Virus genome (UHGV): UHGV-0020642
Direction: 5' to 3' (one strand)
DNA length: 62,536 nucleotides
Source: a virus
Part shown: in pieces, positions 3,057 to 56,172 of the stretch
Layout: every line of letters starts with the position of its first letter
Position numbering within the stretch: the first letter of the stretch is position 1
The notes under the pieces: model-generated
Seen by the model: the letters and a program-made list of their open reading frames with translations, nothing else
Database searches by the model: none
What the model was told of the DNA's origin: nothing
Program-made: the position numbers and the translations under genes

Positions 3057-3548
3057 CTAAATTATTTTATTTGGGTTATCTTTGTCCATAACACGCATAA
3101 CCTTATAACCCATCTGCTCAAACATATTACAATTATCTAAATCATCATCAATAATTAATTTTATGTCAGCCATTGTTTGTAATTCTTCTATTGCTTGCTT
3201 TTTAAGTTCGTGAGGTGGTACACCTTCCATTTTAGAATTTCTAGTTATAAGCATAGCAATATTATCCAAACAAACTTTTCCTAAACTTAGGAATGTATAA
3301 GTTTCCGGACCTATCTTCCTTGCCCTTGCTGTCATAAGTATAATTTTAAAGCCTGCACGATTTAAGGCATTTAACATATCAAACATTACCTTATTTTTTG
3401 ACACATAATTAGAATTATTTGCATTTTCATTAAAATATTCTAATCTTTCATCTTCAGGCAACTCTTCTAAAATTTTATATAGCTTTGACACATCTAGCAA
3501 TACACCATCTATATCGCATACTATTACATTTTCATATAAATATTTCAA
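3057..3548 (-). CDS. HAD-superfamily phosphatase / 5'-nucleotidase-like
   Basis: N-terminal VIVCDIDGVLLD is the HAD motif I (DxDG/T); 163 aa. Confidence 0.5.
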   Translation of the reverse strand: MKYLYENVIVCDIDGVLLDVSKLYKILEELPEDERLEYFNENANNSNYVSKNKVMFDMLNALNRAGFKIILMTARARKIGPETYTFLSLGKVCLDNIAMLITRNSKMEGVPPHELKKQAIEELQTMADIKLIIDDDLDNCNMFEQMGYKVMRVMDKDNPNKII

Positions 3549-7400: not shown

Positions 7401-7603
7401 TACTTCTCCTCCTTCATTTCGCCTGCTCTGTTTTTACCACACGCACGACAATGAAAGGAAAGTAATACTTTTGTAAAATAATAGTTGTCGGCATATCCTG
7501 TAAATTTTTGAACATTTCCACAATGCTCACAATAAATAGTACCAAATATATCATTACCTAATTGACTTGTAATTTCTTTAATCTGCATTATCACGTTCCT
7601 CAC
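7400..7603 (-). CDS. zinc-ribbon protein
   Basis: CEHCGN ... CRACGK. Confidence 0.35.
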   Translation of the reverse strand: MRNVIMQIKEITSQLGNDIFGTIYCEHCGNVQKFTGYADNYYFTKVLLSFHCRACGKNRAGEMKEEK

Positions 7604-8942
7604 AAAATTCTAATACTTGTTGCACAGTCATTTCTTCCTTTGAATCCTTATGCCTAAAACATAAAAATACAGGAAATCTCAAACTAGGTTTGCCATCCGC
7701 ATCTTTTGTCTCTTCAAAATACTGTACCTTTACATCAAAAGCTACTGAAAATCTATTACTTAGAAATAGTTCTCTGTTCTCCCATATTAAATCTCTATCA
7801 AAATCACTGAATCCTGAACCTACGCCTACTAAATTACCTTTATATCTAATATACATAGTTCCTAATCTATTTTCATTCCTGCCTGTACCAATTTGTAAGC
7901 CTTCCAAAGTAAACTCAGAATCTTTCATAGCTTTAATTTTCAATAAATTTTTAGTACGTTTGAATTCATAAGTTGCTATGGCATTTCTATACATTAAACC
8001 TTCCCAGCCATACAAATTTCTTAAATAATCTAACATACTTTTATCTTCTTCTTGTCTTGCTATTAAAATATTAGGATATTTTGTTTCTAATACAGAATAT
8101 CCAAATTTTTCCGAATCTCTAGCTTCTAATTGTAAACATAATGACTCATACACTAGAAAGAAAGGCAATTTACATTTTTTATCTTTAAACTGTTCTGTAC
8201 GCATACTATCAAAAATTACATAATATAAATTATCACATTCTAAAGTGCTTTCATCACTAGCTGTCAATGAAATGCCTTTTTGAAAATCTTCATTACCATC
8301 CTTATCGAAATATAGTATTTCCCCATCAAAAGTAATATCTTTATATTCGTTTTCTAACTGGTCTAAAATATGTTGAATAGGCGCTACTTTACAAGGTTTG
8401 TTAGAGCGAGAATATGCAACACCATCCATAACATACATTCTTTTTCCATCAAATTTTCGACTATACAAACCTCGTTCAAAATCTACACCAGCATAATTTT
8501 CAGCTAACTGTACCTGAGGTTTATCTAAAAATATACCACAAGCTGTTTGGAGTTTAGCTATGCCAATATTAAGCCGTAAGTCTTTAAATAATACCATACA
8601 TAAAAATGACTGAATATCTTTATCAACAAAATCTGTAATAAAAAATTTAACATTCTTAACCTCACCGTCAGTTACCGCTCTTTTTTCAACTAATTTATCT
8701 AAAATTTGTGTGAATTTAATCCAGTCATCAACAGTAAATTCTTGTTTCCTTTTCCTAGGAATTAGACCTTTATGTAATTGTATTCTTTCATATTTACCCT
8801 CATCAATTTTATATGTTCTATCTGGGTCATATGTATATAGTAACACCTCACGCAACATATCATCACATACGGATTTAAGATAATCTAATTGAGCATTACC
8901 GGATAATTCCCTTAACTTATTTAATTTTTCTAAAAGTTGCAC
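7578..8942 (-). CDS. ATP-dependent DNA ligase
   Basis: SRKFDGKRMYV matches the ligase adenylation motif I (KxDGxR); 454 aa, inside the replication module. Confidence 0.7.
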   Translation of the reverse strand: MQLLEKLNKLRELSGNAQLDYLKSVCDDMLREVLLYTYDPDRTYKIDEGKYERIQLHKGLIPRKRKQEFTVDDWIKFTQILDKLVEKRAVTDGEVKNVKFFITDFVDKDIQSFLCMVLFKDLRLNIGIAKLQTACGIFLDKPQVQLAENYAGVDFERGLYSRKFDGKRMYVMDGVAYSRSNKPCKVAPIQHILDQLENEYKDITFDGEILYFDKDGNEDFQKGISLTASDESTLECDNLYYVIFDSMRTEQFKDKKCKLPFFLVYESLCLQLEARDSEKFGYSVLETKYPNILIARQEEDKSMLDYLRNLYGWEGLMYRNAIATYEFKRTKNLLKIKAMKDSEFTLEGLQIGTGRNENRLGTMYIRYKGNLVGVGSGFSDFDRDLIWENRELFLSNRFSVAFDVKVQYFEETKDADGKPSLRFPVFLCFRHKDSKEEMTVQQVLEFCEERDNAD

Positions 8943-9035: not shown

Positions 9036-9551
9036 TTAGCATAATTTTTTAATTACTTGTTCTCGTTCTTCAATAGTCATCTTTTTCAAATTTTTGACAA
9101 CTCTTATTTCATTTTCTAAAATTTCTTTTGAATTTTGTAATTCTATATCTTTCATAAAACAATGTTGTTCTAATGAAGCCACTGCAACTTTGGCATATCT
9201 AGACTGTAAGTAAGATGAAATAATGTCTAGCTCGTCATCGTCAAACGTATGTTCAACTAATTCGCATTCTTCTTCAGGTACGTGAACAGTAAAACCAACA
9301 CGCAACATATCATTTAATTCTTCAAACTGTGTAAATTTTACAGGATTAGGTACTCTGTATTTTTCAGCCCATTTAAGGTTTTCATCAACAGACATATCAA
9401 TTAAACCAAGTCTTGCTAATCTACATTTACAAGCAAACCAAGTTCTTTCCAATTCTTTACCCATTTCATAGAATGTTTTGTGGCTATAAAATAGTCTCTT
9501 CAAAGCCTTATCTTCTTCATTTGTCCATTGGTTTCCGTGTCTTTTTTCCAT
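9036..9551 (-). CDS. hypothetical protein
   Basis: 171-aa ORF. Confidence 0.4.
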   Translation of the reverse strand: MEKRHGNQWTNEEDKALKRLFYSHKTFYEMGKELERTWFACKCRLARLGLIDMSVDENLKWAEKYRVPNPVKFTQFEELNDMLRVGFTVHVPEEECELVEHTFDDDELDIISSYLQSRYAKVAVASLEQHCFMKDIELQNSKEILENEIRVVKNLKKMTIEEREQVIKKLC

Positions 9552-9742
9552 TACAATTCTCCTTCTAATTTTAATACTAAACTTTTTAAGTGCTTAATTC
9601 TACTCTTGTCAAAAATAATACGTTCACCGTTGATATTAACAACTGCGAAATCAACAGATGGACTATAATCTAATTTTGCTTCAAATAAAATAATTTTTAA
9701 ATAGCTTGAAATAACTCTGCTTTCTTCTAATTCTAATTGCAT
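9551..9742 (-). CDS. hypothetical protein
   Basis: 63-aa ORF. Confidence 0.3.
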   Translation of the reverse strand: MQLELEESRVISSYLKIILFEAKLDYSPSVDFAVVNINGERIIFDKSRIKHLKSLVLKLEGEL

Positions 9743-9870
9743 TTGTTCTCCTTTTAATTCGTTTGCATTATAGTTTACTACTATTATTATTTTACAACAA
9801 ATTAATAATTTTAACTGACTTTATAGTAATTATTTTACGATAATACACCATCTATCTAGGCTTTATAGAT

Positions 9871-9900
9871 AATAAAAAAAGAGGACATTTCTGCCCTCAC
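9871..9900 (-). terminator. rho-independent terminator candidate (minus strand)
   Basis: Minus-strand RNA reads GAGGG-CAGAAAUG-UCCUC followed by UUUUUUU, directly downstream of the 9918..10634 gene. Confidence 0.5.
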
Positions 9901-9917
9901 AACTAAATATTTAGATT

Positions 9918-10634
9918 TTATTTTTCAGTTTCTTTTTCATTATCAGCTTTAATTCCAAGAACTTCTCTCTTGTAAGCTAATGTGTTCTTACCGTCAATTT
10001 TTCCAGTTCCTCTTTTTGCACCACCTGGATGTACTTTTGGTTTATAATTCTTTTCATAAACAATAACGGCATCAATAATTGCGTAAATATCAGCAATATT
10101 TGAAGAATTATTAAATCTATAAACATGGTCAAGTGTATAGAAGTGAGTAGGTGGTACTGTCTTACCTAATTCATAAAGTTGTTTATTACCAATAATAGCT
10201 TCACTTCTAACAACTACTTTGACACCTTTAAGACGTTTGCCCCACCAAACTTCCATAATATTTCTTTTAAAACCTTCAAGTCTTACCCTTGTATATGAGC
10301 AAGTCTTTTTGGTCAAACAACCATTTTTCTCTAAATAAGAAATAATTTTTGTAGCTAACTTTAAACAATCTTCTTTAGGTGGTTCATCTCCATTTGGCTT
10401 ATTTGGGTTTGATACCATTTTGTTTAATTTGTCAACTCTCTCTGCTTGTTCGTTCTCTACTTGCACATCTGCTTCTTCAATAATACCACAAGGTTTGTAC
10501 CATCTTTTTAAATTAGACATCTTAATTGTTTTTTCCTGTCCATCAATGTTTAATACAACCTCTGTTTCTGATTTTGAAACTACTGTACCAATTTTCCCGT
10601 TTCTTAAGGATTCGTATCTTTCAATTTCTGCCAT
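9918..10634 (-). CDS. hypothetical protein
   Basis: 238-aa ORF; ATG preceded by an AAAGGAGA RBS and by the conserved promoter-like motif. Confidence 0.45.
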   Translation of the reverse strand: MAEIERYESLRNGKIGTVVSKSETEVVLNIDGQEKTIKMSNLKRWYKPCGIIEEADVQVENEQAERVDKLNKMVSNPNKPNGDEPPKEDCLKLATKIISYLEKNGCLTKKTCSYTRVRLEGFKRNIMEVWWGKRLKGVKVVVRSEAIIGNKQLYELGKTVPPTHFYTLDHVYRFNNSSNIADIYAIIDAVIVYEKNYKPKVHPGGAKRGTGKIDGKNTLAYKREVLGIKADNEKETEK

Positions 10635-14751: not shown

Positions 14752-14998
14752 AATTAAATGCTATACAAGACATTTCTTTATTCATGGCAAAAGCTTCATA
14801 TTTTATTTTATCAAACCATTTTTCTTGAATACTAACACTCTTTTTATCTGTTGTTACAGTCTTAGCATCTATAAGCATAAAATCTGTGGCCACATCACCA
14901 GCTACAAAATTGGCCGCCCCACTATTTGGTTGAACTTTACCTTTTAAAGATTTTGCTATTTGTTTTTCCTGTAAACTTGAAAATTTTCGAGTATTCAT
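14660..14998 (-). CDS. Hjc-like Holliday-junction resolvase (PD-(D/E)XK), putative
   Basis: GAANFVAGDVATDFMLIDAKT resembles the archaeal/phage Hjc core (G...D...E/D.K). Confidence 0.4.
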   Translation of the reverse strand: MNTRKFSSLQEKQIAKSLKGKVQPNSGAANFVAGDVATDFMLIDAKTVTTDKKSVSIQEKWFDKIKYEAFAMNKEMSCIAFNFGPNKPNYFAIPERHFKELLQAYKEKYYEC

Positions 14999-15570
14999 TA
15001 AAACTCCATATCAATATATTTTCTACTAGCTAAATAATCACATAAGTGAATAAATTTTTCGTAACTTGTTTCAGGTTTTTCCATAATTACCTGTTTTGTT
15101 TTAAAATCTGTATTCCATTGTCCCATATGTGTTGCGATACCTGAAGCTAATCTCTCATAAATTAAATTAGTTTCTTTATCTCTAGCTTCTCTTTCCGCCG
15201 ATTTAAGAATAAAATTGGACATTAATACAGGATGGTCTGCTCTTGTGTATCTCTCTTCAGTTTCACCATGCTTTAAACCATCATGTAACAATAAAGCACC
15301 TAAAATTAAATCTCCTGCTCTTTCATTTAATTCCTGAAACATTTCTAACTGCAATAAATCTAATGCTATACGAATGGCTCCTTTTGTATGTCTAACTAAA
15401 CCACCTTCGCCTAAACTCATTTTAGGGTGATATTTTCCTGTGCTACTTGCCGCCACTTTGAAGAAATAATCAGGCAAGTTACTTAATATATCTATAACTA
15501 CTGATTTAACAGGTTCTTTAATATGTTCTAATTCCTGTTCAAATATTTTAATTTTTTCTTCTGCTAACAT
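14998..15570 (-). CDS. HD-domain phosphohydrolase
   Basis: STGKYHP ... LLHDGLKHGE gives the H...HD...H metal-binding pattern. Confidence 0.55.
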   Translation of the reverse strand: MLAEEKIKIFEQELEHIKEPVKSVVIDILSNLPDYFFKVAASSTGKYHPKMSLGEGGLVRHTKGAIRIALDLLQLEMFQELNERAGDLILGALLLHDGLKHGETEERYTRADHPVLMSNFILKSAEREARDKETNLIYERLASGIATHMGQWNTDFKTKQVIMEKPETSYEKFIHLCDYLASRKYIDMEF

Positions 15571-19069: not shown

Positions 19070-20155
19070 TTAACCCTCATCTGCTAATACTGTCAACAAG
19101 TGATGACGTTTCTCTTTACCAAATTTCAAATAACCTTCATTACCATATTGTATATAGCACTTATCATCACATACGGAATTAATAAGGTCTTTAAATACAT
19201 CTAATTGAAGTTTTTCTTCAAAGTTTACAAATTTTTTGCTTTCTACATAAGGTAATAATTCGTTAATTGACTGTTCTTTGTTATAGAATTGAATGCCGTC
19301 TTTTGTAAACATTACACGAACACCTTCTTCTTTTGTCTTAACAAATAACAAAATACGGTCTAAAATACCAAGTAATTGAGCCTTATCAACTACACAAGAC
19401 GCAGGCTGTTCAGTTGAAAATAATTCGTTAATAGGTTCCAAAGTATTTTCTTCAAATTCTTCTTTGCCTTCATTACAATAACCTACAATAAGTGTTTTTG
19501 GTGTTTCAAAAGCAATACGGTCGCCTAATACATAAACATGAATGTCTTCATTTTCCATAGTTGCTACAAGATTTACCAAATCCGCTTTTAATAGCATTGG
19601 TTGTCCAAATACATTGATTTCGGACATTGAACCTGTTGTCATATTAGTTGTTAATACAGAATCACCAAAGTAATAAGACATTAAATAAGGAATTTCTGGT
19701 GTTTTGGCTAAACTTAATTTGTTGCCTTCTAATGCCCATACAATAGCAGACAATTTAATTTTTAGTTTCTGTGCCTTAGCTGTATCAAAAGTTAATTCAG
19801 GGTAATTATCTAATTCACCTTCATCGTCAACTGGCAATTCTAATTTATAATCACCATTACCTTTAATTTTTAAGTAATTGTCTTTCAATTCCATGGTAAC
19901 ATTTTCACAAGTTGTTTTTGAGATAAGTTGTGCGAATTTATCTGCTGTAACTGTAACTTTAAAATCATCACACATTACCTTATCTTCTATAACTTGTAAA
20001 TAATTTTCACCGTCCCAAGTTGTCATGCTCAATTCGTTGTTAGCACATTTAATACCAATCCAACAAGTTCTCATCATAGAATCATTGTTACCTACGCCTT
20101 TCATGGCTCTTGTAACTAAATTCTTCAACAGTTTGGTCTCTAATTTAACTTTCAT
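19070..20155 (-). CDS. DNA sliding clamp (DnaN/beta-like), putative
   Basis: 361 aa, the length of a beta clamp. The N-terminus MKVKLETKLLKNLVTRAMKGV resembles DnaN starts. It sits in the replication module with three clamp-loader genes. Confidence 0.45.
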   Translation of the reverse strand: MKVKLETKLLKNLVTRAMKGVGNNDSMMRTCWIGIKCANNELSMTTWDGENYLQVIEDKVMCDDFKVTVTADKFAQLISKTTCENVTMELKDNYLKIKGNGDYKLELPVDDEGELDNYPELTFDTAKAQKLKIKLSAIVWALEGNKLSLAKTPEIPYLMSYYFGDSVLTTNMTTGSMSEINVFGQPMLLKADLVNLVATMENEDIHVYVLGDRIAFETPKTLIVGYCNEGKEEFEENTLEPINELFSTEQPASCVVDKAQLLGILDRILLFVKTKEEGVRVMFTKDGIQFYNKEQSINELLPYVESKKFVNFEEKLQLDVFKDLINSVCDDKCYIQYGNEGYLKFGKEKRHHLLTVLADEG

Positions 20156-20165
20156 TTTCTCTCCT

Positions 20166-20729
20166 TTACTTTATACTGTTTAAAACTTCATTCTTAAGTG
20201 GCAAATCATATTCAAATCTACCTCTCAAGCAATTAGTTCTTGTTACTGTGTGTGGCTGTTTAATACCTCTAGCATTTACACAAGCATGACGGCCATCAAT
20301 TACAACCATTATATCTTCCATACCCAATTTCTGTAATACTTCGCAAATATCCATTCCAATTCTTTCTTGAACTTGAAGTCTTTTACTTACCATATCACAA
20401 ATTCTAGGGAATTTAGATAATCCTAATACTTTACCATCCTTAGGAATATAAGCAATATTTATATTGAGTTCCATCAATGCACAATGATGTTCACAATGTG
20501 AAAAACAATGAATACCATTCATAATTACAAGGTCTTTACTGCCAATTTCAAACTGTTTATCAAACATTTCAGCAATATCATCATTACTGTAATTAGCACC
20601 TTCAAAAAGCTCTTTAAAATAGCCTAACATTCTTTTTGGTGTTTCTTTAAGACCTGCTCTTTGTGGTTCTGGGTCAATTTCATTTAATATTGTTTTAAAA
20701 GCTTCTATAAGTTTTTCTTCATCAAACAT
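20166..20729 (-). CDS. folE: GTP cyclohydrolase I
   Basis: CEHHCALMELNI matches the FolE zinc site CEHH; 187 aa. Confidence 0.8.
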   Translation of the reverse strand: MFDEEKLIEAFKTILNEIDPEPQRAGLKETPKRMLGYFKELFEGANYSNDDIAEMFDKQFEIGSKDLVIMNGIHCFSHCEHHCALMELNINIAYIPKDGKVLGLSKFPRICDMVSKRLQVQERIGMDICEVLQKLGMEDIMVVIDGRHACVNARGIKQPHTVTRTNCLRGRFEYDLPLKNEVLNSIK

Positions 20730-21412
20730 TATACACCTCTCTTATCTGGACTCCATACTATTTTATGAAGTTGTACCTGAAATCTAATATCAAATTTTGG
20801 AAATTTTTGTTTTAATATTTTAACTTCTTCTACCAAATCCTCTAAATTAATAGCATTAAAACAAGGACTTATAAATATTGTACTTTTAAAAGTAGGATGA
20901 TTTAACAGAAACCTACGAATAGAACTTAAATCTTCTTGATTTGCTACTACAAATTTAAGAACATCATTTTCGTCCATAATAGAAAAGTTTTCATGTACCA
21001 TTTTTTCTTCCATACCAGAACAAGGACATTTATAATCTACTGTAAAAAATCCCCTGCCTGCTCTTACTGCAAATATATATGGTAATAATTCAACACTTCC
21101 ATTGGTTTCAATATTTATATAATGACCTGTTTTCTGTAATAAATCAATAAGTTCAATAACTGGTCCTTGGTGTAATAATGGTTCTCCACCTGTTATTGTT
21201 ACAGCTTTATATGTAACTTTTTTAACAATATCTTCTAAACTCATTAAATCACCTTGAGTTGCTTCTTGTGCGTACCAAGTATCACAATATTTACATCTTA
21301 AATTACAACCTGCTAATCTAATAAAGGTTACGGGCATACCTGTTCGTATGCCTTCCCCTTCAATACTATCAAAAATCTCTACTACATTTAAACTTGTCAT
21401 TACACACTCCAT
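20729..21412 (-). CDS. queE: 7-carboxy-7-deazaguanine synthase (radical SAM)
   Basis: CNLRCKYCDTWY is the CxxxCxxC radical-SAM cluster motif; GGEP present. Confidence 0.8.
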   Translation of the reverse strand: MECVMTSLNVVEIFDSIEGEGIRTGMPVTFIRLAGCNLRCKYCDTWYAQEATQGDLMSLEDIVKKVTYKAVTITGGEPLLHQGPVIELIDLLQKTGHYINIETNGSVELLPYIFAVRAGRGFFTVDYKCPCSGMEEKMVHENFSIMDENDVLKFVVANQEDLSSIRRFLLNHPTFKSTIFISPCFNAINLEDLVEEVKILKQKFPKFDIRFQVQLHKIVWSPDKRGV

Positions 21413-21795
21413 TCTGCTATATTATATTGACTTTCCTGTACAATTACCTTTGAGCAATATGGAACAAATACATCTCTTTCGTCATTTTGTACTTTATAAT
21501 CATTTTTATTATTATCTAAATACTGATTAACTCTATCCTTAACCCAAGTTGCTATATTTTCAGCTGTTGGATTAAAATCAAATACTTGATTCAAATCATT
21601 ATGGTCCATTTCTTGATGTATCAATTCCTTAATTCTTTTGAAATCTAATAACATACCATGCTGGTTTAATCTATGTCCACTTACTTCAATACTAATTATC
21701 CAATTATGCCCATGATTATTTATACAAGGACTTTGATAATCTAAATTAAGATGGTGCATAGCCGAAATTTCCATTGTTTTTCTAACTTTATACAT
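21400..21795 (-). CDS. queD: 6-carboxy-5,6,7,8-tetrahydropterin synthase
   Basis: CINNHGHNW is the QueD CxxxHGH motif; 131 aa. Confidence 0.8.
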
Positions 21796-22447
21796 TACTA
21801 GCCTCTTTCTCTTGCATATATTCTTTATAACCTTGTTCTCTTAGTTTACAAGCCGGACATTCGTGACAACCACCTTCAACACCATTGTAACAAGTATGGG
21901 TATTATTATAAACATAGTCTAAATAACCTAATTCATCGGCCAATGCCCAAGTTTGTTTTTTGTTTAAATACATTAATGGCGTTACAATATTAAACTGGTA
22001 ATCCATAGCCAATGAAAGTGTTTGCTGTAAAGAATCAATAAATACTCTACGACAATCAGGATATCCACTAAAATCAGTTTCACAACAACCAGTAATAATA
22101 TCGTGAGCTCCTAGTTGTTTAGCATAAATGGCCGCAATTGATAAAAATATATGATTTCTACCATCTACAAAAGTATTAGGATATTTTTCGCCTTTTTCAA
22201 TATCCATTTCAGGATGAGTTAATGCACAACCAGACAAACATTCAAAAATTGGTGTAACTTGTACTAACTTATGAGAAACATTAAAGTCATTACAAATTTT
22301 CTTAGCTTTTTCTAACTCTCCCCAATGATTTTGACCGTAAAAGAATGAAATAGTATGTACTTCATCATATTCCTTTAAAGCCTTTAATAAACAAGTGGTA
22401 CTATCTTGTCCACCACTAAATACAACAACTGCAATTTTCTTATCCAT
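21788..22447 (-). CDS. queC: 7-cyano-7-deazaguanine (preQ0) synthase
   Basis: [12 protein letters not shown] is the PP-loop SGGxDS motif; C-terminal [10 protein letters not shown] zinc motif. Confidence 0.85.
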
Positions 22448-22471
22448 ATTTGTCTCCTTTCGTTGTTAAAA

Positions 22472-22487
22472 TTATTGTATAACAAAA
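22472..22487 (-). promoter_or_regulatory. conserved promoter-like motif TTATTGTATAACAAAA upstream of queC
   Basis: Minus strand reads TTTTGTTATACAATAATTTTAACAACGAAAGGAGACAAATATG. The motif, TTCGTTG element and RBS are arranged as at the 10677 copy. Confidence 0.45.
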
Positions 22488-22555
22488 CCAGTTAAAAAGT
22501 AAAGCCTAATGTTACCGATTCTTTACAAATATCGGCAACACTAGGCAGAAAAAGG

Positions 22556-24127
22556 TTATACCCCAAATCCTCCTTTTAACTCATCTAATTGTCTTGATTT
22601 TTCAATTTCATTAAATTTTTCCTCACCATTACTATAAGTTGCGAATGGGTGTATTGCAATTCCACCACGAGGTGTGAATAAACCCTTGACTTCTAAATAT
22701 TTTGGTTCTAATAATTTAACTAAATCTTTCATTATAATATTAACACAATCTTCATGAAAATCTCCATGGTTTCTAAAACTGAATAGATATAATTTTAGTG
22801 ACTTGCTTTCCACCATTTTCTTATCTGGAATATATTTAATGTGAATTGTTGCAAAATCAGGTTGACCTGTTTTTGGACATAAGCTAGTAAACTCATAAGC
22901 ATTAAATTTTACTACATAATCATTACCTGGATGTTTGTTTTCAAAATACTCTAATTGTGAAGGGTCATAATCATATAAGTATTTTGTATTTTTAGCACCT
23001 AGACCTTTAACAGTACCAAACTCCTCGCCTGAACGTCCTGCGTTGGTTTCTTCACTTACGTTTTCTGGCACCTCTGCACTAGCTTTTACATCGCTTAAAG
23101 ATAATTTTGATTCTTTTGCTTTTGTTTCCATTAATTTTTGGTCTTCTTGTCTTTGTTGTTCCATTAACTCCGCCTTTCTTATAAGTTCTTTATGTTGCTC
23201 AATTGTTTTTGGTTTTAATCTAATAAGTGTACGTTTTTTAATTTCTGTGCCCCTATATTCATAATTTTTAGCCCAATCTAACAAATAAGCTATATTAAAT
23301 TTACATCTTTCTTGATAGCTTGTAGACAAATCCTCAAACTTAAATTTATATTTCTTACATAAATCTTTAACCTGCTGTATTTCTGCAGATGTTTGATGTG
23401 AAATATGCTGTGGATTATCAGTTTGTTTATCACTAATTACAACAGTTCCATTTGGTGTCATTATCCCGCCATTTGCACCTGTCATAATCCAACTAGTTGA
23501 ATCTGCACTTGTAAATGGATATCTTTCTAATACAGGTAAAGATGTCATTCCGAATGCGTGTGTCATAACATTTGGATTACTACTTTGACCAATTATTCTA
23601 AATACAGTTTCAAACCATTCATTTTTTTCTTTTGTTGACCTATCGTTAGCAGGAGAAACTCCAATATATGGAATATGCTTACCATCAAAAGTAGTTTCTA
23701 GCATAGTTACAAGCCAGTCAAAGTCTTCGTTTTGGTGAAATACGGGTAGTATTTTATCTGGACTTTTAACTCTTTCACGCATATACAAATAATTTTCCCA
23801 GCCAATTAAAGGAGCTTCTAAACATTCCTTTCTTGTTTTAGGCTTTCCAAACTTACCAGGAATCTTATCTAATTCGGCCGCAATATAAATAAACTCATCT
23901 CTTTCGTTTAAGAACTCAATATACTTATCGATATCAACTTCTTTACCTACTGTATGTGCAGAAAAAGCACCCGAGTCAATAAATAATTTACCCTTAGCTT
24001 TATTTTCAATCCAAGCTTCTATAACATTTCTATCATTTATCCAACTGGCAAGTCTATTTGCTTTTTTACTAATTAAATATTCTCGCCATGCTGGGTTATC
24101 GCTACCAGCGAAGTACAAATTAAACAT
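22556..24127 (-). CDS. queF: bifunctional protein: N-terminal DpdA-like 7-deazaguanine DNA transglycosylase (inferred) fused to C-terminal preQ0 reductase QueF
   Basis: The C-terminal ~130 aa ([58 protein letters not shown]...[10 protein letters not shown]) is an unambiguous unimodular QueF. The N-terminal ~380 aa has no motif I can name; the DpdA assignment rests only on context (a que cluster with no other transglycosylase) and carries about 0.4 confidence. Confidence 0.7.
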
Positions 24128-26408
24128 CTAATTTTATCTCCTCTCCGTACCATCTTTTACAAATTACCATATCACATCTCCAAGGTAGTTTAATTTTAGC
24201 TTGCGGAGATGTTTCCATAGTTTCTTGGTACAATTTTGCTAGTTTCTTTAAGTTACTTTCAGGACCTGTAATACCCAATTCATCGTGAATTTGTAATACA
24301 ATTTTTCCACCTAATTTTTTAAATTCTGGATTATACCATAAATTTACCATTGACAACTTAATCATGTCTGAAGCTGTTCCTTGAATAGGAGTATTAATTG
24401 CCTGTCTTTCTGCCGCCGATATTTTAGAAGTATTATCCACAATCTTAATATTTTCTTCTAGAGCTTGTTGAATAATTTTTTGTTTATCTTTCCATTTGTA
24501 GCAATTATCTAAAGCATCTTCATATTCCTGTTGTATATCTAGAGGAACTTCCTGTACTGCTGTCTCACTATCAAAATCTAATAAATCAAAATTATTACCC
24601 ACACCGTCGTTCCAAGAAAATTCATATGGTTCTAACTGCATATCTGGCAGATGTCTCCTTCTGCCCCATACAGTTTTCACATAACCATTTTTATAAGCGA
24701 ATTTATATGTACTTTCTGTAAATTCTTTAATACGTGGGAACCTAGCAAAGAATTTATGTTGAATTTCTTGAGCCTCTTTTAACTTTTTGCCCAAACTTTT
24801 TGCCAATGAATAAGCTTCTTGTCCATACGTCATAGCAAGCTGAATAATTTTTGCTTGACTTCTTCTTTCCTTTCCTTCTTTGTTAGTTGTGCCATCCGGT
24901 CTAAATTCTCTACACTCGTCAGCAGGAACACCAAAAGCTGTACTAGCTACTTCCGGATATAAATCTGCATTCCTATCAGTTTTATAAATTTCCAACATAT
25001 TCTCATCTTGACTTAACCAAGCTGTTGCCTTTGGTTCTTGTTGAGAATAGTCGGCAAATATTAAAACTTGGTCCTCACCATCTTCAGTTTTACCCGCTAT
25101 AAACATTTGTCTAATGTCATCGTTATGTGAAGGTATATTCTGCAAATTAGGGTCGCTACTTGAAAATCTACCTGTATCTGTGCCATTCTGGTTGAAACTT
25201 GCATGAATTTTACCTGTTACTGGATTTATAACTTTTGGCATTTTATCAATATATGTAGAAAGTAATTTATTTATTCCTCTATATTTTAAAATTACTTCAA
25301 CAACAGGCTCCTCCATAGCACTTAAAATTTCATCACCTGTTCCTCTAGGTTTACGTTTATCATTACTTGTTAAACCTAAAACATCATAAATAAGTTGTGC
25401 AACTTGTTTCGGACTGTTTGGATTAAGTGGCAACTTAAACATATCTCTAGGATTTCGCTTATTGTATTCAGCAATTTCCTTTGAATATAATTTACAAACA
25501 TTGTCTACTTCTGTTTCACATTCTTCTAGTTGTTTATGATACTTAACAGACAATTCACTTGCATATTCGGTATCAATAGAAATACCTGTACGTTGCATAT
25601 CTGCCACTACTTGCACCAGCGGAATTTCAATTGAAGCTAATAACTCTTTCAACTCTAAATTTTCCGGACGGTTATATTGTGTCAACTGGTATTGATACAC
25701 TTCATATGTTATTTGTGCGTCCTTAGCCCCATATAAATAAGCAATATTAATTGGTATATACGCAAAATTTACACCTTCAAACAACGAAGAGTAATCATTT
25801 ACTTTACCATCTTTTGCAACATATTTAGAATACAAATATTTCAAACCAGCATCTTCCAACTCATTAAGTATTTTAGAAGCTACCATTGTATCCCAAACTA
25901 ACGTATCAAAACACCAATTAAATCTAAAATATCCAACATTAATATCAAATTTGCCGTTGTGCATAATTGAAGGAATACTTTGTAATCTTTTTAATTGTCT
26001 TTCAACTACATCTAAACTTAATTGATTTTGCTTAATTAAATTATCTACGAAACTTCTATGACTTACTGGTACATAACAAGCCTTCATGCCTGGTGTATAT
26101 AAACTAAAACCAACTAATTCACAAGTTATAAAATCTAAACTTGTGGTCTCTGTATCGAATGCGAATATATTATTCTCTATACATTTATCAATATAGCTTG
26201 CTAATTCTTCTTCTGTTTGTATTAGCAAAAACTCGTCTTTTAAATGTCCTAACTCTGCTTCAACTTTTGCTCTAATTAGTTGTATTCTATCCCCTATTGT
26301 GCTTCCAGTTGATTTTCTTGTTGTAACCTTTTTCTTTGAATTTTGTATTTTAGAAGCAACCTGTGAGGTATTTACTCCCACAGGTGCTTTAATATTAAAT
26401 AATGCCAT
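24120..26408 (-). CDS. polA: DNA polymerase I (family A) with 3'-5' exonuclease domain
   Basis: FDTETTSLD is exo motif [17 protein letters not shown] is pol motif B (R...K...YG), and VLQIHDEL is motif C; 762 aa. Confidence 0.9.
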
Positions 26409-38612: not shown

Positions 38613-39908
38613 TTATTCTAAATAAAATGAGTTGCCATTTCTTTTTATTGCTACACTAAAAGGAAAATCTTCAATATTTATCCTTTTTAATTGATTTTCA
38701 ATAACTTTACTTCTTGTGAATGTAATGTGTAATTGTGTATCTTTTTCATCATTCACATACACAAATTGAATTTTATTAGAATCTTCGCCTTTAACTTTAC
38801 AATGCTTCCAAGCGGTTATTATTATTTGCTTGTCTATTAATGTCAATATTGAAACTTTTGTGCCTGTCATTGGAAATTCAGGTTTTGGACCTATATTTTT
38901 AAATTCTTTTATTGACATATCTTTTATTAAATTATCCAAATTTAGGCTCCTTATTAAGTTATATGTGTAACAATGTTTAGCATAACCTCTATATGAATTT
39001 AATGTGCATAGTTGTTTTAGAAATGGTCTTTTATCTCTATTTTTAACTATGTCTAAAACTGCTCTTTTAAGTTTTTTGGCGGTTCTTTTTCTTAAAAGTG
39101 TATAGCCTGTAAAGTGTCTATAACCTAAGAAATCTATACCTTGTTTGCAAGGAAAAACTTCACTGTAACTCATTTTCTGTTTCAATTCTAATTCTACAAA
39201 TTGATGAATTTGTTTTTGGATATCCAAAAGTTGTTCCTTACTATTAGATAGTATAACACAATCATCGCAATATCTACAATAGTTTTTCACTTTTATTTTA
39301 TGTTTTAATAATTTATCAAGTTTATTTAAGTATATATTACCAAATAGTTGGCTGGTAAGATTGCCGATTGGACAATTTTTACCGCCAGGAAAAGAAAATA
39401 CTATATCTTTAATAATTCTTAATAAATATTTATCTTTTATTTTCTTTTGTATCTCTGTAAATAAAATTTGTTGGTCAACAGTAGGATAAAATTTTTTAAT
39501 ATCAGTCTTTAAACAATATTTATTTTTCATTATTAGCTTTCGTACTCTATAACTTCCAGCTATTGGTCCTCTGCCTTTTATACAACCAAAAGTATGAGAA
39601 ATAAAGCCTTTAACAAATATATCTTCTATGATATTATTTATTGCGTGATGTACAATTCTATCTCTTAAAGGTAATATGTAAATAAGTCTGTGTTTACCAT
39701 TTTCAAATATTTGTTTTGTACTGTATTTTGATGTTGTAAATCTATTATTTATCACGTCTTGTCTTAAATTTTCTAAATTAGTTGCAAGATTCTTTTCAAA
39801 TTGTTGCACATCTTTTCTATCTCTTCTACCTCTTGTTGTTTTTAACCAAGCTTCAAAGAAATTTTCTTTAGTTATAAATTTATTCCATAATTTACCAGTT
39901 CTCTTCAA
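38613..39908 (-). CDS. diversity-generating retroelement (DGR) reverse transcriptase
   Basis: NCPIGNLTSQLFGNIYLNKLD carries the DGR-specific I/LGxxxSQ motif in place of the QG of other RTs. YCDDCVIL is RT motif C (YxDD). LPLRDRIVHHAIN is RT motif 2. TTG start with an AAAGGAG RBS. The TR lies about 135 nt upstream. Confidence 0.9.
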   Translation of the reverse strand: MKRTGKLWNKFITKENFFEAWLKTTRGRRDRKDVQQFEKNLATNLENLRQDVINNRFTTSKYSTKQIFENGKHRLIYILPLRDRIVHHAINNIIEDIFVKGFISHTFGCIKGRGPIAGSYRVRKLIMKNKYCLKTDIKKFYPTVDQQILFTEIQKKIKDKYLLRIIKDIVFSFPGGKNCPIGNLTSQLFGNIYLNKLDKLLKHKIKVKNYCRYCDDCVILSNSKEQLLDIQKQIHQFVELELKQKMSYSEVFPCKQGIDFLGYRHFTGYTLLRKRTAKKLKRAVLDIVKNRDKRPFLKQLCTLNSYRGYAKHCYTYNLIRSLNLDNLIKDMSIKEFKNIGPKPEFPMTGTKVSILTLIDKQIIITAWKHCKVKGEDSNKIQFVYVNDEKDTQLHITFTRSKVIENQLKRINIEDFPFSVAIKRNGNSFYLE

Positions 39909-40043
39909 TTTTCTCCTTTAAAATGAAAGGCCCGAATTTTCGCATATTGCTACTCAAACTGACCTTTCCCCGTATTGTTTTTTCGCCGAAACGAAGGATT
40001 TAGGCCCCAGCTTGCACCTTAGGAATCTTCCCAGATACAATAA

Positions 40044-40153
40044 CACGCCCCGGCAACCATTATTCACATTCGAGTTCAACAGGTTATTATTCGAATTAAC
40101 AGACCACGAACCACAGTTCGAAGAGTTGTCGTATTTACCACCTAGTTTCACCA
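40044..40153 (-). repeat. DGR template repeat (TR)
   Basis: 110-bp intergenic copy of the VR, GC-richer than its surroundings. On the minus strand it is Asn-codon rich (translates ..YDNSSNCGSWSVNSNNNLLNSNVNNGCRGV). It differs from the VR only at its adenines. Confidence 0.85.
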
Positions 40154-40268
40154 GGAAGGGCCTTAACCCTATAAGTTTGTTTCACGTTCTAAGCTCTAAG
40201 ATTTTAGGACTTAGGATTTTGTGTTACGGCCCTTCCTCGCAAGCTCGGAAGAGCAGGTTTTGGTTTGG

Positions 40269-42320
40269 TTATGCGTGTACACGTTCTAGGTGCAAGCTCA
40301 CGCCCCGGCAACCATCAGCCACATTCGAGTTCAACAGGTTAATATTCGAACTAACAGACCACGAACCACAGTTCGAAGAGTAGTCGTAACCACCACCTAG
40401 TATCACCACATAAGGAACACCATAAGTACCGCCACGTCTAGCATCTGCAAAGGCATTCCAGTTTTGTGAACCAGTTGCCGCGATTTGTCTAGATACTTGC
40501 CATAAGTAACCGCAACAGCATTCTATAAAGTAACCAGAAATCATACGTTTTCCAGCTGTATCTAAATATCCACCACATTTTTTATCAGTTGGGATATTTG
40601 AACCTTGAATATTCGTTTTCTGGTTAGAACCTTCTGCGAATGTCATAAATTCATCTCTACTTGCTGGCATTTTACCTACCTGTTTTAAATCCCAGAAGAA
40701 GTTTTGATATTGTCTGTTATTAGAAATTGTACCTGCATAGCTAGAAGCAGAAGCTGAACCTGTTCCACTTAACAAGTAAATATCTACCCAAACTCTAACA
40801 TCATTTCTATCTACAAACGCCATGCCTTTATTTCCTGTTTTGGCCGCTGAACGAAAAGCAGGAGTCCAAGAAGAGTTAGGAATAAAGTAACCTGCATTAT
40901 AACCTTTTGCTGGGTGGTTCATCCAAAAACTATCAGCAGGAAGGTCTGGTGCATTACTTTCTGTAACACCCACGCATAAAGTGTGAGCTCCACCTATTTG
41001 AACTGCGTTTGTAATACCTGTAGGTAATTGTTCGTTTAAACTAGCAACTAAATTACCTTGATTATCTAAATAGAAATAATAATCTTTACCATTACTTACT
41101 GTACCGGTATCTAAAATTTCTGAAATTGGTTTAAGCAAATCATTTTCTGTATAGAATGTATCACCGTTTGCTTTTCTAATTGCTGTGCCACCTTTAATAG
41201 TTACATATTGCTTATCTGCAAAAATAAAATTTGGTTGTTTATATTCAAATTCTCTATTTGCATACCAAATAATATTTGCTTTTTTAGGTAATTCTGCAAG
41301 ACATTGAGTTGTATTAGTTAAAGAAGTTTCATCTGCTCCTGTTGCTAATTGTACCATTGGTCTTAATTTAATTGAATTTGGTTGTACTTTTGCATTGTCT
41401 TGGTAAACAGTATTGCCTATTGAAGCATCAATTTCGGCATCGCCCGTGTTATCAGTAGCGCCTGTGGTATTCCAATTAAATACACCTTTACTACTATTAG
41501 AGATACGAACTTGTCTGTTCGAAAGATTATCACCTATAAATGTTCTACCGACATAACCCGCAACATTTGGTAAACTTTCAGAAACAAATTGTCCTACTTT
41601 ACTAACTTCATCAGCTTGCACATAAATTTCTTTAATTTTAGGCACTTTAAATTTTTGATTTGTAGTATCTAAACCAAAGTATGTACAAACACCAGTAGAT
41701 TCAACTTGAGACGCATAAGTTTCATAATCTACACTCGGTATAGAACCTGCAACCAATAAATCATATGGGTTTGTATCACCTGTAAAGTCAGATTTATTAA
41801 ATTCTTGGGCATTACATTCATAAGCCCCATTTAAAGAATTATCTTTTCTAAACGTCCAGAAAAAATCACCTATGTTTCTACCTACTGCTCCTTTATTTTC
41901 TAAAATATAGAAACAATCTTGAGTAGAGTCATATCTTAATGTTACAAGCCAACCTTGTGGAATAGAGCCTGCTGTTAATGCTTGATTTTTAAGTGTTTTA
42001 ATTTGTTTTGCACCAAGACTATTTACATTTACATAACAATCTCCTGTATTAGAAGTTGAGGATTTAAAGACAACTTCCATACCGTTGAAATAACTTGTGG
42101 GTGCTACGTTTTGAGAATCATCTGAAAAAGTTACCGGAGCTAATACATAAGTATTAGAACTATAACTTGTATTCTCATAAAAAGAACCATTACTTGCATA
42201 AACTGGCATTAGGTTGGCTAAATTATTGATACCTTCGCCTATATTATTCATATGAATAGGTCTTACAGTATCATTGTCAACCCAATTAGTTTTTTGGTCC
42301 GCTACTAAATTGTTAGACAT
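40269..42320 (-). CDS. tail fibre protein, DGR target (variable C-terminal domain)
   Basis: 683 aa, last gene of the tail/baseplate cluster. Its C-terminus ...GGGYDYSSNCGSWSVSSNINLLNSNVADGCRGVSLHL carries the VR; the variable residues correspond to AAY/AAA codons in the TR. Confidence 0.75.
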   Translation of the reverse strand: MSNNLVADQKTNWVDNDTVRPIHMNNIGEGINNLANLMPVYASNGSFYENTSYSSNTYVLAPVTFSDDSQNVAPTSYFNGMEVVFKSSTSNTGDCYVNVNSLGAKQIKTLKNQALTAGSIPQGWLVTLRYDSTQDCFYILENKGAVGRNIGDFFWTFRKDNSLNGAYECNAQEFNKSDFTGDTNPYDLLVAGSIPSVDYETYASQVESTGVCTYFGLDTTNQKFKVPKIKEIYVQADEVSKVGQFVSESLPNVAGYVGRTFIGDNLSNRQVRISNSSKGVFNWNTTGATDNTGDAEIDASIGNTVYQDNAKVQPNSIKLRPMVQLATGADETSLTNTTQCLAELPKKANIIWYANREFEYKQPNFIFADKQYVTIKGGTAIRKANGDTFYTENDLLKPISEILDTGTVSNGKDYYFYLDNQGNLVASLNEQLPTGITNAVQIGGAHTLCVGVTESNAPDLPADSFWMNHPAKGYNAGYFIPNSSWTPAFRSAAKTGNKGMAFVDRNDVRVWVDIYLLSGTGSASASSYAGTISNNRQYQNFFWDLKQVGKMPASRDEFMTFAEGSNQKTNIQGSNIPTDKKCGGYLDTAGKRMISGYFIECCCGYLWQVSRQIAATGSQNWNAFADARRGGTYGVPYVVILGGGYDYSSNCGSWSVSSNINLLNSNVADGCRGVSLHLERVHA
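40299..40408 (-). repeat. DGR variable repeat (VR) inside the 3' end of the tail-fibre gene
   Basis: Aligns to the TR at an offset of 255 bp. In my hand alignment there are 10 substitutions, all at minus-strand TR adenines (10 of about 29 As) and none at the other ~81 positions. The VR ends 28 nt before the stop codon. Confidence 0.85.
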
Positions 42321-43282
42321 TATGCTTCCTCCTGTAATTTTAATGTGTGTACTAATTGAACAGTATCTGGAACTGGAATATATACATTAGCATTCTCAAG
42401 TACATTATCCTCAGTATCCAGTAGTTTTATATTTGTTATATTCTCAATTTGACTTCTTTCTACAGAATATTCTAATCTAATAGTATCCGGGCCAATTGTT
42501 TTATGAGAATCTTGAATAACAATTTCTAAAGTATCATTTAATTTTGCTTTATAGAATTTTGGTTTATATTTTTCTAAAGTATAATCAAATAAAGGCTGTT
42601 GTAAACTTTTAATATTTGGCATTTTTACGATTTCTCCTTGCTGTCTTGTAAACGAATCAATTCCTAATTTCCAATCACCATTAAGTCTGTAATTATAAAT
42701 AGTTTCGCCGTCAACACTATAAAAAGGACTAGCTCCTAAAGACCATCTGCCGTCTAGTTTATAGTTCCAAATTAATTTTTGAGCATATATAGTCTCATTT
42801 ATATTTAAAACTTTACTAACTCGTGGCACATTGATAAAAATCATATTACAAGGCTTAACTGCTGTAATAGATACTTGTATTTCGTGATACCATAAACTAT
42901 CTTCAACAGCACTTTCTAATAATATTGTAAAATTATCATTATCCACATCTAATTTATAGCGACCTTTGCCGAAAAATCCATCCAACATAATTCTTAAATA
43001 GTAATATGTGTATGGAGGAGTTAGCATTTTCATTCTAGATAAAATACGTTCTCTTCTAAATTGTACTGATTCTGTTTCAGGATTAGCTACAATATTAAAT
43101 ATATTTTCATAATAAGGTAATACTTTTAAACTTGCAAATTGTACAAACTGGTCCATTAATGCTTGTTCGTAAGTATTATTCATCTTATTTATTTCAATAG
43201 AAAGAGAGTCTTGCTGAGTTTCTGACTCAACAACACCCTCGTACACTATAGGCAAGTATTGTTTTAAATCTACATTATTCAT
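42320..43282 (-). CDS. baseplate/tail protein (XkdU/DUF2313-like), putative
   Basis: 320 aa; position between baseplate J and the tail fibre matches the PBSX-like order. Confidence 0.4.
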   Translation of the reverse strand: MNNVDLKQYLPIVYEGVVESETQQDSLSIEINKMNNTYEQALMDQFVQFASLKVLPYYENIFNIVANPETESVQFRRERILSRMKMLTPPYTYYYLRIMLDGFFGKGRYKLDVDNDNFTILLESAVEDSLWYHEIQVSITAVKPCNMIFINVPRVSKVLNINETIYAQKLIWNYKLDGRWSLGASPFYSVDGETIYNYRLNGDWKLGIDSFTRQQGEIVKMPNIKSLQQPLFDYTLEKYKPKFYKAKLNDTLEIVIQDSHKTIGPDTIRLEYSVERSQIENITNIKLLDTEDNVLENANVYIPVPDTVQLVHTLKLQEEA

Positions 43283-44450: not shown

Positions 44451-44808
44451 AATTTAACTCCTTTGTTATTCCTTCTATATAACCTTCTGTAGAAATTACA
44501 TCAAAAGTTATTAAACAACTGTCAATAGTTTGTTGTTCAACTGTAAAATTTTGAATACTTTCTACTCTATCATCTTGTAATAAACAATCTTCAACGTAAG
44601 ACTGTAAATTTGTCTGTATATAGTCTAAATCTTGTCCTATAAAAGGTTCCATATCTAAACCATATAACCAGCCGTAAATTAAGTATCCAAATTTTTCAGT
44701 GTCTAAGGCCTTATAAATGGATTGAACCAATGCTTGCTTATTGTCAATCATTGATGAAATACGTCCTGTGGCGGAATTTATATAATATGTAAGTCCTGGT
44801 TCTGCCAT
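44443..44808 (-). CDS. baseplate wedge protein (XkdS/gp25-like), putative
   Basis: 121 aa, immediately upstream of the baseplate J-like gene. Confidence 0.4.
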   Translation of the reverse strand: MAEPGLTYYINSATGRISSMIDNKQALVQSIYKALDTEKFGYLIYGWLYGLDMEPFIGQDLDYIQTNLQSYVEDCLLQDDRVESIQNFTVEQQTIDSCLITFDVISTEGYIEGITKELNYG

Positions 44809-44853
44809 TTACTCCTCCTGAATTATTATAACACGAATTTGATAATTTGTGTA

Positions 44854-49941: not shown

Positions 49942-50116
49942 TATTTTTTAGCCCTTGCTTTGTCCATCTCAATTTTTTCTTTTTTAACTTTTTCGTCTAT
50001 AAAAGCAATTACAACTGATTTTTCTCTTCTGGACATTAGTGCGAATTTGGAGGGTTCCCAGTGGAAACGATGTAGGCAATAATATGCGTATATCGTCTCC
50101 GGGTCATCCTCCTCTA

Positions 50117-50527: not shown

Positions 50528-50542
50528 CTTTTTCTCCTTTCA

Positions 50543-51004: not shown

Positions 51005-51022
51005 TTTAAAATCCTCCTATTA

Positions 51023-52387: not shown

Positions 52388-52398
52388 ATTGTTTCTCC

Positions 52399-54386: not shown

Positions 54387-54399
54387 AAAGCTACCTCTC
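54361..54399 (-). terminator. terminator-like hairpin downstream of the major capsid gene
   Basis: Minus-strand RNA reads GGAGAGG-loop-CCUCUC followed by UUCUUUUAU. This would be a partial terminator after the highly expressed capsid gene. Confidence 0.4.
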
Positions 54400-54415
54400 C
54401 CAAGAATAGCTGAAA

Positions 54416-55483: not shown

Positions 55484-55495
55484 TTCTATCTCCTT

Positions 55496-56158: not shown

Positions 56159-56172
56159 AAGTTTTTCTCCTT

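Follow-up and report, generated by a model that had tools for sequence, protein, structure and literature searches.

The phage genome UHGV-0020642 was analysed as one stretch of DNA of ~62.5 kb, referred to here as the window, and it was found to encode a single polypeptide in which a DpdA-type DNA guanine transglycosylase domain is joined to the nitrile reductase QueF. The fused gene is one of five intact, tightly packed open reading frames (ORFs) on the minus strand at 20166-24127, which code for FolE, QueE, QueD, QueC and the DpdA-QueF protein of 523 amino acids (aa). The genome has 30% GC with nearly all genes on one strand and belongs to an uncultivated, Dp-1-like phage, its replication module being syntenic with that of Streptococcus phage Dp-1. 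We consider it likely that this part of the replication operon forms a phage module for 7-deazaguanine modification of DNA, and a pathway is proposed that leads to dPreQ1, the deoxynucleoside of 7-aminomethyl-7-deazaguanine (preQ1). Phage 7-deazaguanine DNA modification is already known, and DpdA fused to QueF is a new form of it; this fusion is unmentioned in the literature searched, including the two studies by Hutinet et al. (PMC6884629 and PMC10516641).

The DpdA-QueF fusion protein

Unimodular QueF has ~160 aa, and the fusion ORF is about three times longer. A first-pass annotation of this DNA had named the whole ORF QueF. A real QueF does occupy residues ~372-523, but the ORF also holds a DpdA that had gone unnoticed, in residues 1-305. 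The same annotation had assigned the genes to DNA modification and not to tRNA queuosine, and the presence of this transglycosylase as the N-terminal domain now supports that assignment. Since the biosynthetic genes alone would equally fit precursor supply for tRNA queuosine, DpdA is the decisive component. Coordinates and principal profile matches of all features are collected in Table 1.

The DpdA domain shares 51.5% identity with Dp-1 Gp7 and 49.5% with the homologue in Bacillus phage Flasso. Against the DpdA of Enterobacteria phage 9g, which has been experimentally shown to put preQ0 (7-cyano-7-deazaguanine) into DNA (PMC6884629), identity is 29% (BLASTP, E 4e-33). Residue H190 (THAFGMT) aligns with 9g H196 (KVHGFGIT), a position at which the conserved His has no counterpart in DpdA2 (PMC6884629). 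Because it is similar to 9g DpdA and keeps H190, the domain is assigned to the DpdA1 type, as opposed to DpdA2, DpdA3 or DpdA4. An AlphaFold2 (AF2) model of the domain, built on 70 homologues, reached a mean confidence (predicted local distance difference test, pLDDT) of 91.4. Its best Foldseek matches in the PDB were archaeosine tRNA-guanine transglycosylase (TGT; E 2.5e-8) and bacterial TGT, with probability 1.0, and the best viral matches (BFVD) were phage DpdA homologues.

Residues D51 (FIDSGAF), D87, H131, H190 and D209 (SADSTS) are invariant in the 70 homologues, and the three Asp are also invariant across 16 diverse phage DpdAs. In the model, a TIM barrel, D51, D87 and D209 each lie where a strand ends (beta3, beta4 and beta8). 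By spacing, D51/D87/H131/D209 match the catalytic set D95/D130/H181/D256 of Salmonella DpdA (PMC10164549). The three Asp would serve, by analogy with the roles described there, as general acid/base, in base recognition and as nucleophile; D51 would be the general acid/base, as counterpart of the Asp in the TGT motif DSGGF, and D209 the nucleophile. The TGT zinc site (CxCxxC...H) is missing from the DpdA domain, in which no Cys is invariant. Identity as a tRNA-guanine transglycosylase proper (PF01702) was ruled out by the lack of both a profile match and a zinc site.

The QueF domain scores 168.6 bits against TIGR03139 (E 3.6e-50; cutoff 86.9), and its profile matches Bacillus subtilis QueF 4F8B over residues 3-154 with E 7e-71. 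It shares 62% identity with B. subtilis QueF, 64% with Dp-1 Gp1 and 64-72% with QueF in Clostridiales, Lachnospiraceae and Bacteroidetes genome assemblies. The catalytic Cys (CPKTGQPD), the NADPH motif E(S/L)K(S/A)hK(L/Y)(Y/F/W) and HED are all present. From the 62% identity and the complete active-site motifs, a pocket for the free base is expected. QueF-L was ruled out as the identity of this domain, given that the NADPH motif is present and that 5JYX matches at E 0.17 versus E 7e-71 for 4F8B.

Other rearrangements of QueF were also observed. Two homologues, P0182 (503 aa) and P0239 (335 aa), carry an intein-like insert exactly at the catalytic Cys, with EFTS(K/L)C before it and, after an insert ending in HN, CPKTGQPD. 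In addition, P0209 (393 aa) is a QueC-QueF fusion, so that QueF has been joined to other pathway enzymes too.

The linker consists of a conserved helix at residues 309-339, with pLDDT ~80-90 in the full-length AF2 model, followed by a variable disordered segment; residues 341-402 fall below 50. Its length and sequence differ among the 24 fused homologues, and P0024 has nearly none. The linkers of P0008, P0011 and P0017 contain a Cys-rich insert (e.g. ICEECQGGPDGDCKPCE), possibly a small zinc knuckle, that does not occur in the window protein. No ATG is found at the QueF domain boundary of the window fusion gene. A candidate internal start for free QueF is M317, which is preceded by a weak Shine-Dalgarno-like sequence and which some of the fused homologues lack.

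The fusion is real and conserved. Clustering at 90% identity sorted 134 full-length fused homologues (468-548 aa, 52-99% identical) into 24 clusters. The sequences stem from assemblies in ENA, Logan, JGI and NCBI, and many lie on contigs of 60-64 kb; sources of related contigs include ENA ERZ27287243 and ERZ4201038, Logan SRR7614708 and IMG 3300045988. Six IMG/VR contigs of ~62 kb also hold the fusion. Among the fused relatives the order PolA-fusion-QueC-QueD-QueE-FolE-DnaN is conserved. No match over at least 80% of the fusion protein was obtained among 50,697 deposited phage records. Across 185,579 prokaryotic species, each represented by a single genome, no fusion or prophage was found, and only cellular QueF genes matched. 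A HMMER search of representatives of 1.84 billion proteins gave no full-length fusion among the best 150, from which the fused clade would be narrow and represented by unfused sequences at 50% clustering.

The arrangement of the unfused genes bears on the origin of the fusion. In Dp-1 and its closer relatives the order is PolA-QueF-QueC-QueD-QueE-FolE-(QueT)-DpdA-DnaN, which puts dpdA at one end of the operon and queF at the other. Of the unfused proteins, P0025 of locus L020 is nearest to the window DpdA, at 65% identity; there the order is PolA-DpdA-QueF-QueC and a 12-nucleotide (nt) spacer with a Shine-Dalgarno sequence separates dpdA from queF. The dpdA stop codon is lost in L003 (P0024, from a contig of 112 kb), where the spacer and QueF start are read in frame ('...KLF QQGEPQ MVRED...'), the old Shine-Dalgarno sequence and ATG being retained in frame. 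To judge by its sequence, L003 is a second fused form that arose by simple stop-codon loss. The clade of the window has 65-100 aa of linker between the domains, which is without counterpart in the unfused arrangement. A neighbour-joining tree, without support values, placed the fused and the adjacent but unfused forms in one clade. Adjacent, unfused dpdA and queF also occur in L039, L050 and L100, in either order.

Table 1. Features of the predicted modification module and its immediate flanks in the window, from higher to lower positions
Feature	Positions	Strand	Evidence
PolA, family A DNA polymerase with 3'-5' exonuclease	24120-26408	-	PF00476 1.8e-95; PF01612 3e-17
DpdA domain of the fusion (aa 1-305), predicted DNA guanine transglycosylase, DpdA1 type, SPAND loop	23213-24127	-	PHROG 887 8.4e-58
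Linker of the fusion (aa ~306-371), ~65 residues	23015-23212	-	helix 309-339, then variable disordered segment
QueF domain of the fusion (aa ~372-523 and stop), NADPH-dependent preQ0 to preQ1 nitrile reductase, unimodular	22556-23014	-	PF14489 9.2e-35
Spacer, 108 nt	22448-22555	-	16-bp hairpin 22504-22546; T-rich run; promoter-like TTTACT-18-TACAAT 22474-22503; Shine-Dalgarno
QueC, preQ0 synthase, 219 aa	21788-22447	-	PF06508 6.5e-76; TIGR00364 249 bits (cutoff 150)
QueD, 6-carboxytetrahydropterin synthase, 131 aa	21400-21795	-	PF01242 (PTPS) 6.2e-23; TIGR03367 3.9e-23
QueE, radical-SAM 7-carboxy-7-deazaguanine synthase, 227 aa	20729-21412	-	PF04055 (radical SAM) 3.2e-12
FolE, GTP cyclohydrolase I (GTP to H2NTP), 187 aa	20166-20729	-	PF01227 2.2e-54; NF006826 184 bits, over cutoff
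DnaN-like sliding clamp, directly downstream of folE	19070-20155	-	PF00712 2.5e-05, 24.8 bits (cutoff 24.4)

Substrate loop, proposed pathway and alternatives

In TGTs, the Gly-rich beta6-alpha6 loop binds the 7-substituent of the base (PMC10164549). This loop was compared in two sets, one of 16 phage DpdA1 sequences and one of 80 IMG/VR loci with 10-kb flanks. In the first set, the ten QueF-linked DpdA1 (the window, Dp-1, Flasso, three metagenomic relatives, Pan1, R5C, the phiSM-like phi38:2 and Mufasa8) all have the loop (V/I)SP(A/R)ND (10/10), at only 25-33% identity to one another across lineages. The QueF-less DpdA1 of 9g, CAjan, Ssp-JY38, Vibrio 2.117.O, RHEph04 and PaMx25 have (L/I)GG(L/M)V(G/P), the GGxVG type (6/6). 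In the second set QueF was found at 12 of the 80 loci, and 12/12 of these have SPAND. Loci of the GGxVG type had QueF in 0/34, although most have QueC, QueE and FolE nearby. DpdM-like genes stood beside SPAND-type DpdAs only. These patterns point to an adaptation of the SPxND-type DpdA to a substrate other than preQ0, and the protonated aminomethyl group of preQ1 could find a partner in the acidic D162. SP(A/R)ND is a candidate sequence signature of preQ1-specific DpdAs; in all cases examined, the loop told QueF- and DpdM-linked DpdAs from those of the preQ0 type.

Further beta6-alpha6 loop types were seen in L032-L111, namely AATTD, SSTND, SPAID, SSSKD, SPKLD and SPHTE, with QueF nearby in none. 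If the loop reflects specificity, the modified base would be predictable from sequence in metagenomic phages, and the signature would flag further types such as AATTD, SPHTE and SSTND.

In the proposed pathway, GTP would be converted to free preQ0 by FolE, through 7,8-dihydroneopterin triphosphate (H2NTP), QueD, through 6-carboxytetrahydropterin (CPH4), QueE, through 7-carboxy-7-deazaguanine (CDG), and finally QueC. The QueF domain would then reduce free preQ0 to preQ1 with NADPH, and the DpdA domain would exchange guanine for preQ1 in double-stranded phage DNA after replication. For the base exchange a double displacement as in TGTs is proposed, in which D209 would act as the nucleophile and D51 as the general acid/base. 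With QueF tethered to DpdA, preQ1 would be delivered at the site of insertion and the product biased to dPreQ1 over dPreQ0 (the preQ0 deoxynucleoside). The resulting dPreQ1-containing DNA would be resistant to host restriction. We infer the DNA modification itself from homology to Dp-1 and 9g, and we likewise infer the reduction of the free base before insertion, the channelling and the protection against restriction.

Regarding the end product, the first-pass annotation had predicted preQ1 rather than preQ0. The unimodular, NADPH-type QueF, the dPreQ1 of Dp-1 and the failure to find further-modifying genes all speak for it. Dp-1 is the closest characterised phage with this gene set, and its DNA contains 3389 dPreQ1 per 10^6 nt and no dG+ (deoxyarchaeosine; PMC6884629). 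A route of QueF-L type to dG+ was excluded by the NADPH motif and the Dp-1 data. Pfam searches of the non-structural ORFs (1-40151 and 59968-61729, on either side of the virion-gene block 40269-59731) revealed no DpdM (YkgJ/DUF3109), DpdN formyltransferase, ArcS, Gat-QueC or methyltransferase. Matches to "Serglycin" in these searches were discarded as an artefact of the Gly-Ser spacers joining the concatenated ORFs. When the whole window was searched by tblastn, the DpdM-like proteins of L013 and L021 met with chance-level matches only. Since no DpdM- or DpdN-like gene was found, the predicted end product is plain dPreQ1.

Several points weigh against this interpretation. The modification in the window is a prediction from genes and homology. 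In Dp-1 only ~1.7% of G is replaced, and the extent of modification, and with it the protection, may therefore be small; Dp-1 DpdA itself was not assayed. The DpdA1 of Cellulophaga phage phiSM, also of the SPAND type, was inactive in E. coli (PMC10516641). For the N-terminal domain, PF01702, the Pfam TGT model, gave no match at E 0.01, and a sequence/profile search of the PDB gave no match either, with no TGT at E 1. An hhalign comparison with E. coli Tgt aligned 19 residues around DSGxF, with D51 opposite Tgt D89 (LTDSGGF), at low probability. What links this domain to TGT is its predicted fold and its phage homologues. Confidence is low for the QueF domain and for most of the linker in the full-length AF2 model, which gives nothing on domain contacts or oligomer state. 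The association of loop and QueF (Fisher's exact p = 4.5e-8) comes from related loci, so that its independence is overstated. Finally, 12 SPxND loci have no QueF within 10 kb, nor is the rest of the pathway nearby; these phages may keep the pathway elsewhere or use host preQ1.

The order of reduction and insertion admits an alternative, in which DpdA inserts preQ0 and the tethered QueF reduces DNA-bound dPreQ0 in situ, as archaeal QueF-L does on tRNA-bound preQ0, the fusion holding the reductase on DNA. A QueF that had to act on DNA would indeed be expected to be fused to a DNA-binding enzyme, all DpdAs characterised before 2023 insert preQ0, and the order was explicitly left open for Dp-1 in PMC6884629. 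We nevertheless judge in-situ reduction rather improbable. The QueF domain is close to the free-base B. subtilis enzyme (62% identity), with QueF-L matching marginally (E 0.17); phage QueFs reduce free preQ0, and the QueF-linked DpdA2 of Vibrio phage VH7D inserts preQ1 (PMC10516641). There would then also be no reason for the swap from GGxVG to SPxND in QueF-linked DpdAs. Direct insertion of preQ1 is favoured because of the nearness of QueF to the free-base enzyme, the data of PMC10516641 and the loop difference, since a preQ0-inserting DpdA would have no evident reason to swap its loop.

Much harder to maintain is a role in tRNA, by which the phage would boost preQ1 and the TGT-like enzyme would adjust translation by modifying host tRNA. 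The domain does have the fold of a tRNA-guanine transglycosylase, homologues are named 'queuine tRNA-ribosyltransferase' in databases and the Dp-1 genes were originally annotated as 'tRNA modification'. The N-terminal domain, however, fails the Pfam TGT model and has neither the zinc-binding Cys/His nor any tRNA-binding extension such as PUA. It falls among the phage DpdAs, of which the 9g member modifies DNA, and Dp-1 virion DNA contains dPreQ1 (PMC6884629). Moreover, no tRNA gene, QueA, QueG or QueH was found in the window phage. We therefore consider a tRNA role very unlikely. That the 523-aa ORF is a sequencing or assembly artefact, a stop codon having been lost between separate dpdA and queF genes as the close unfused relative L020 with its 12-nt gap might suggest, is scarcely credible given the same fused frame in 24 independent 90%-identity clusters (134 sequences) from several assembly sources and in six IMG/VR contigs, a 65-100 aa linker without unfused counterpart and no start codon at the QueF boundary.

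Unimodular QueF is a homodecamer. Returning to direct insertion of preQ1, a more elaborate model can be drawn, which we put forward as speculative and on the whole doubtful: the fusion would be a working machine and no accident of the genome, and a QueF core with up to ten flexibly tethered DpdA domains, whose SPAND pockets would be preQ1-specific, would channel NADPH-dependent preQ1 synthesis straight into base exchange in DNA and give much denser or purer dPreQ1 than the ~1.7% of G in Dp-1, with SPxND versus GGxVG acting as a general specificity code.

The question of order was raised in PMC6884629 (2019) and partly answered in PMC10516641 (2023). The single-polypeptide system allows a direct test of whether preQ1 is formed before or after insertion. 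For work with such phages, the modification would mean resistance to restriction digestion and possibly odd behaviour in sequencing and cloning.

Locus, spacer and neighbouring genes

The first-pass annotation had described FolE, QueE, QueD, QueC and QueF as contiguous and placed between the DNA polymerase and the sliding clamp. The ORFs are intact at 20166-24127, and PolA and the DnaN-like clamp were confirmed on the two sides. The motifs it had reported (CEHH, CxxxCxxC, CxxxHGH and SGGQDS) were each found in their ORF. All five families match in Pfam or NCBIfam; that annotation had named a failure to match Que-family profiles as evidence against itself.

FolE has, in addition to CEHH, the C-terminal Cys. 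The best NCBIfam match of QueE is the Clostridial-type model TIGR03963 (E 2.9e-65), at 220 bits and under its curated 260-bit cutoff, and its cluster motif reads CNLRCKYC. QueD scores 81.7 bits against TIGR03367, slightly under the 89-bit cutoff; its CxxxHGH motif (CINNHGH) is not the DpdL variant LxxxHRHxF of PMC10516641. QueC has SGGQDS and the C-terminal Cys cluster, and a Gat-QueC identity was ruled out, as the protein is without a glutamine amidotransferase domain. From the 30% GC and the Clostridial-type QueE, our guess for the host is a low-GC anaerobic Firmicute.

The polA stop codon overlaps the fusion-gene start codon at 24120-24127 (ATGTTTAA), and the genes overlap by 8 nt (queC/queD), 13 nt (queD/queE) and 1 nt (queE/folE). 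These stop/start overlaps suggest that the modification genes are translationally coupled to the replicase. The DnaN-like clamp, with its PF00712 score at threshold, matches Dp-1 DnaN (Gp10) in position, and past it lie genes for a Cas4-like nuclease, RecU, RecA/UvsX and the clamp loader.

The overlaps are interrupted by the spacer between the fusion gene and queC, which divides the module into the fusion gene, co-transcribed with polA, and queC-queD-queE-folE. Its RNA has a predicted fold of -32 kcal/mol (z -5.8). In L002 and L014-L018 the hairpin is kept with compensatory stem changes, and the promoter-like sequence that follows it, written TTTTGT(T/A)ATACAATAA or TTTTGTTATACAATAA, is conserved. 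The hairpin is a candidate terminator, processing site or timing switch. A preQ1 riboswitch (-I, -II or -III) upstream of queC was considered and rejected, with no Rfam match in the window at the gathering threshold; the spacer region 22380-22640 gave nothing relevant in Rfam even at E 10. A scan for intrinsic terminators did not call the hairpin, whose 11-nt loop is over the limit of that scan.

Relatives differ in what stands between the fusion gene and queC. In L013 and L021 the fusion gene is directly followed by a gene (7584-8366 and 8168-8911, respectively) for a YkgJ-like protein of 247-260 aa with the cysteine cluster CxxCxxCC. This protein is precomputed as PF03692 in L021 and matches PF03692 at E 0.019 in L013, and the same family occurs just upstream of dpdA in L037, L039, L040 and L096. 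The carriers of this protein, of the DpdM preQ1 methylase family, may make mdPreQ1 (methylated dPreQ1). In L003 the same place is taken by a gene (9417-10349) for a 310-aa protein of PF09924 (LPG_synthase_C, aminoacyl-tRNA-dependent transferase-like; E 2.9e-12), and three IMG/VR contigs (L054, L061 and L063) have a homologue ~1.5 kb upstream of their SPAND-type dpdA. From its family and position, this protein is a candidate for an enzyme acylating the preQ1 aminomethyl group, which would be an undescribed hypermodification.

Elsewhere in the window, further early-region ORFs (3057-3548, 7578-8942 and 14998-15570) code for a HAD/PNKP-phosphatase-like protein (PF25109, E 5e-4, under its cutoff), an ATP-dependent DNA ligase (PF01068 and PF14743) and an HD-domain protein in the function-unknown PHROG 5889. 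A diversity-generating retroelement was found on the minus strand at 38613-42320. Its reverse transcriptase (431 aa, 38613-39908; PF00078, E 5.6e-18) has the motif IGNLTSQ. The template repeat lies at ~40033-40153, and a 683-aa gene (40269-42320) has the variable repeat (~40288-40408) at its 3' end; in the repeat core, 100% of the mismatches fall at template adenines.

Comparison with known systems

The bacterial queuosine pathway (FolE-QueD-QueE-QueC-QueF and TGT) has identical chemistry up to preQ1. It differs in the acceptor, which is tRNA there and, as predicted, DNA in the window, and the window has no QueA, QueG, QueH or preQ1 riboswitch. Furthermore, the window transglycosylase has no TGT zinc site and no match to the Pfam model of TGT.

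The bacterial Dpd restriction-modification system (DpdA/DpdB/DpdC) of Salmonella Montevideo (PMC10164549) also uses a DNA transglycosylase of TGT fold for base exchange, and its three Asp and one His map by spacing to D51, D87, D209 and H131 of the window protein. In that system, by contrast, the DpdB ATPase is needed, preQ0 is inserted and then converted by DpdC to 7-amido-7-deazaguanine (ADG), and the genes sit in a defence island; neither DpdB nor DpdC occurs in the window.

Among phages, the Queuovirinae (Enterobacteria phage 9g and Escherichia phage CAjan) share with the window a DpdA1 with the conserved His and the catalytic Asp residues, as well as FolE, QueD, QueE and QueC beside polymerase and clamp genes. 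They are without QueF, and 9g has Gat-QueC; their products are dPreQ0 or dG+ and not dPreQ1. Their DpdA loop is TGT-like (LGGLVGAS or IGGMVGRS), whereas that of the window is SPAND.

Closer in predicted chemistry are Vibrio phage VH7D and Cellulophaga phage phiSM, in which QueF, DpdA and DpdM lead to dPreQ1 and mdPreQ1 (Hutinet et al. 2023, PMC10516641). A QueF-linked DpdA with dpdA near queF is common to them and the window, and a phiSM-like DpdA1 has the SPAND loop. The VH7D enzyme, however, belongs to the DpdA2 subfamily, the genes are separate, and both phages have the DpdM that the window is without.

The module of Dp-1 (Gp1-Gp7) comprises QueF, QueC, QueD, QueE, FolE, QueT and DpdA, and its dPreQ1 has been measured (Hutinet et al. 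2019, PMC6884629). The window has the same six enzymatic functions, a unimodular QueF and the SPAND loop in DpdA, and in both phages the module lies beside DnaN, a Cas4-like nuclease, RecU and RecA in the replication module. Unlike Dp-1, with its gene for a QueT-like transporter, the window has none, and its module directly follows polA, to which it appears to be translationally coupled. Above all, dpdA and queF are separate in Dp-1, whereas in the window dpdA lies 5' of queF, the two being joined by the ~65-aa linker.

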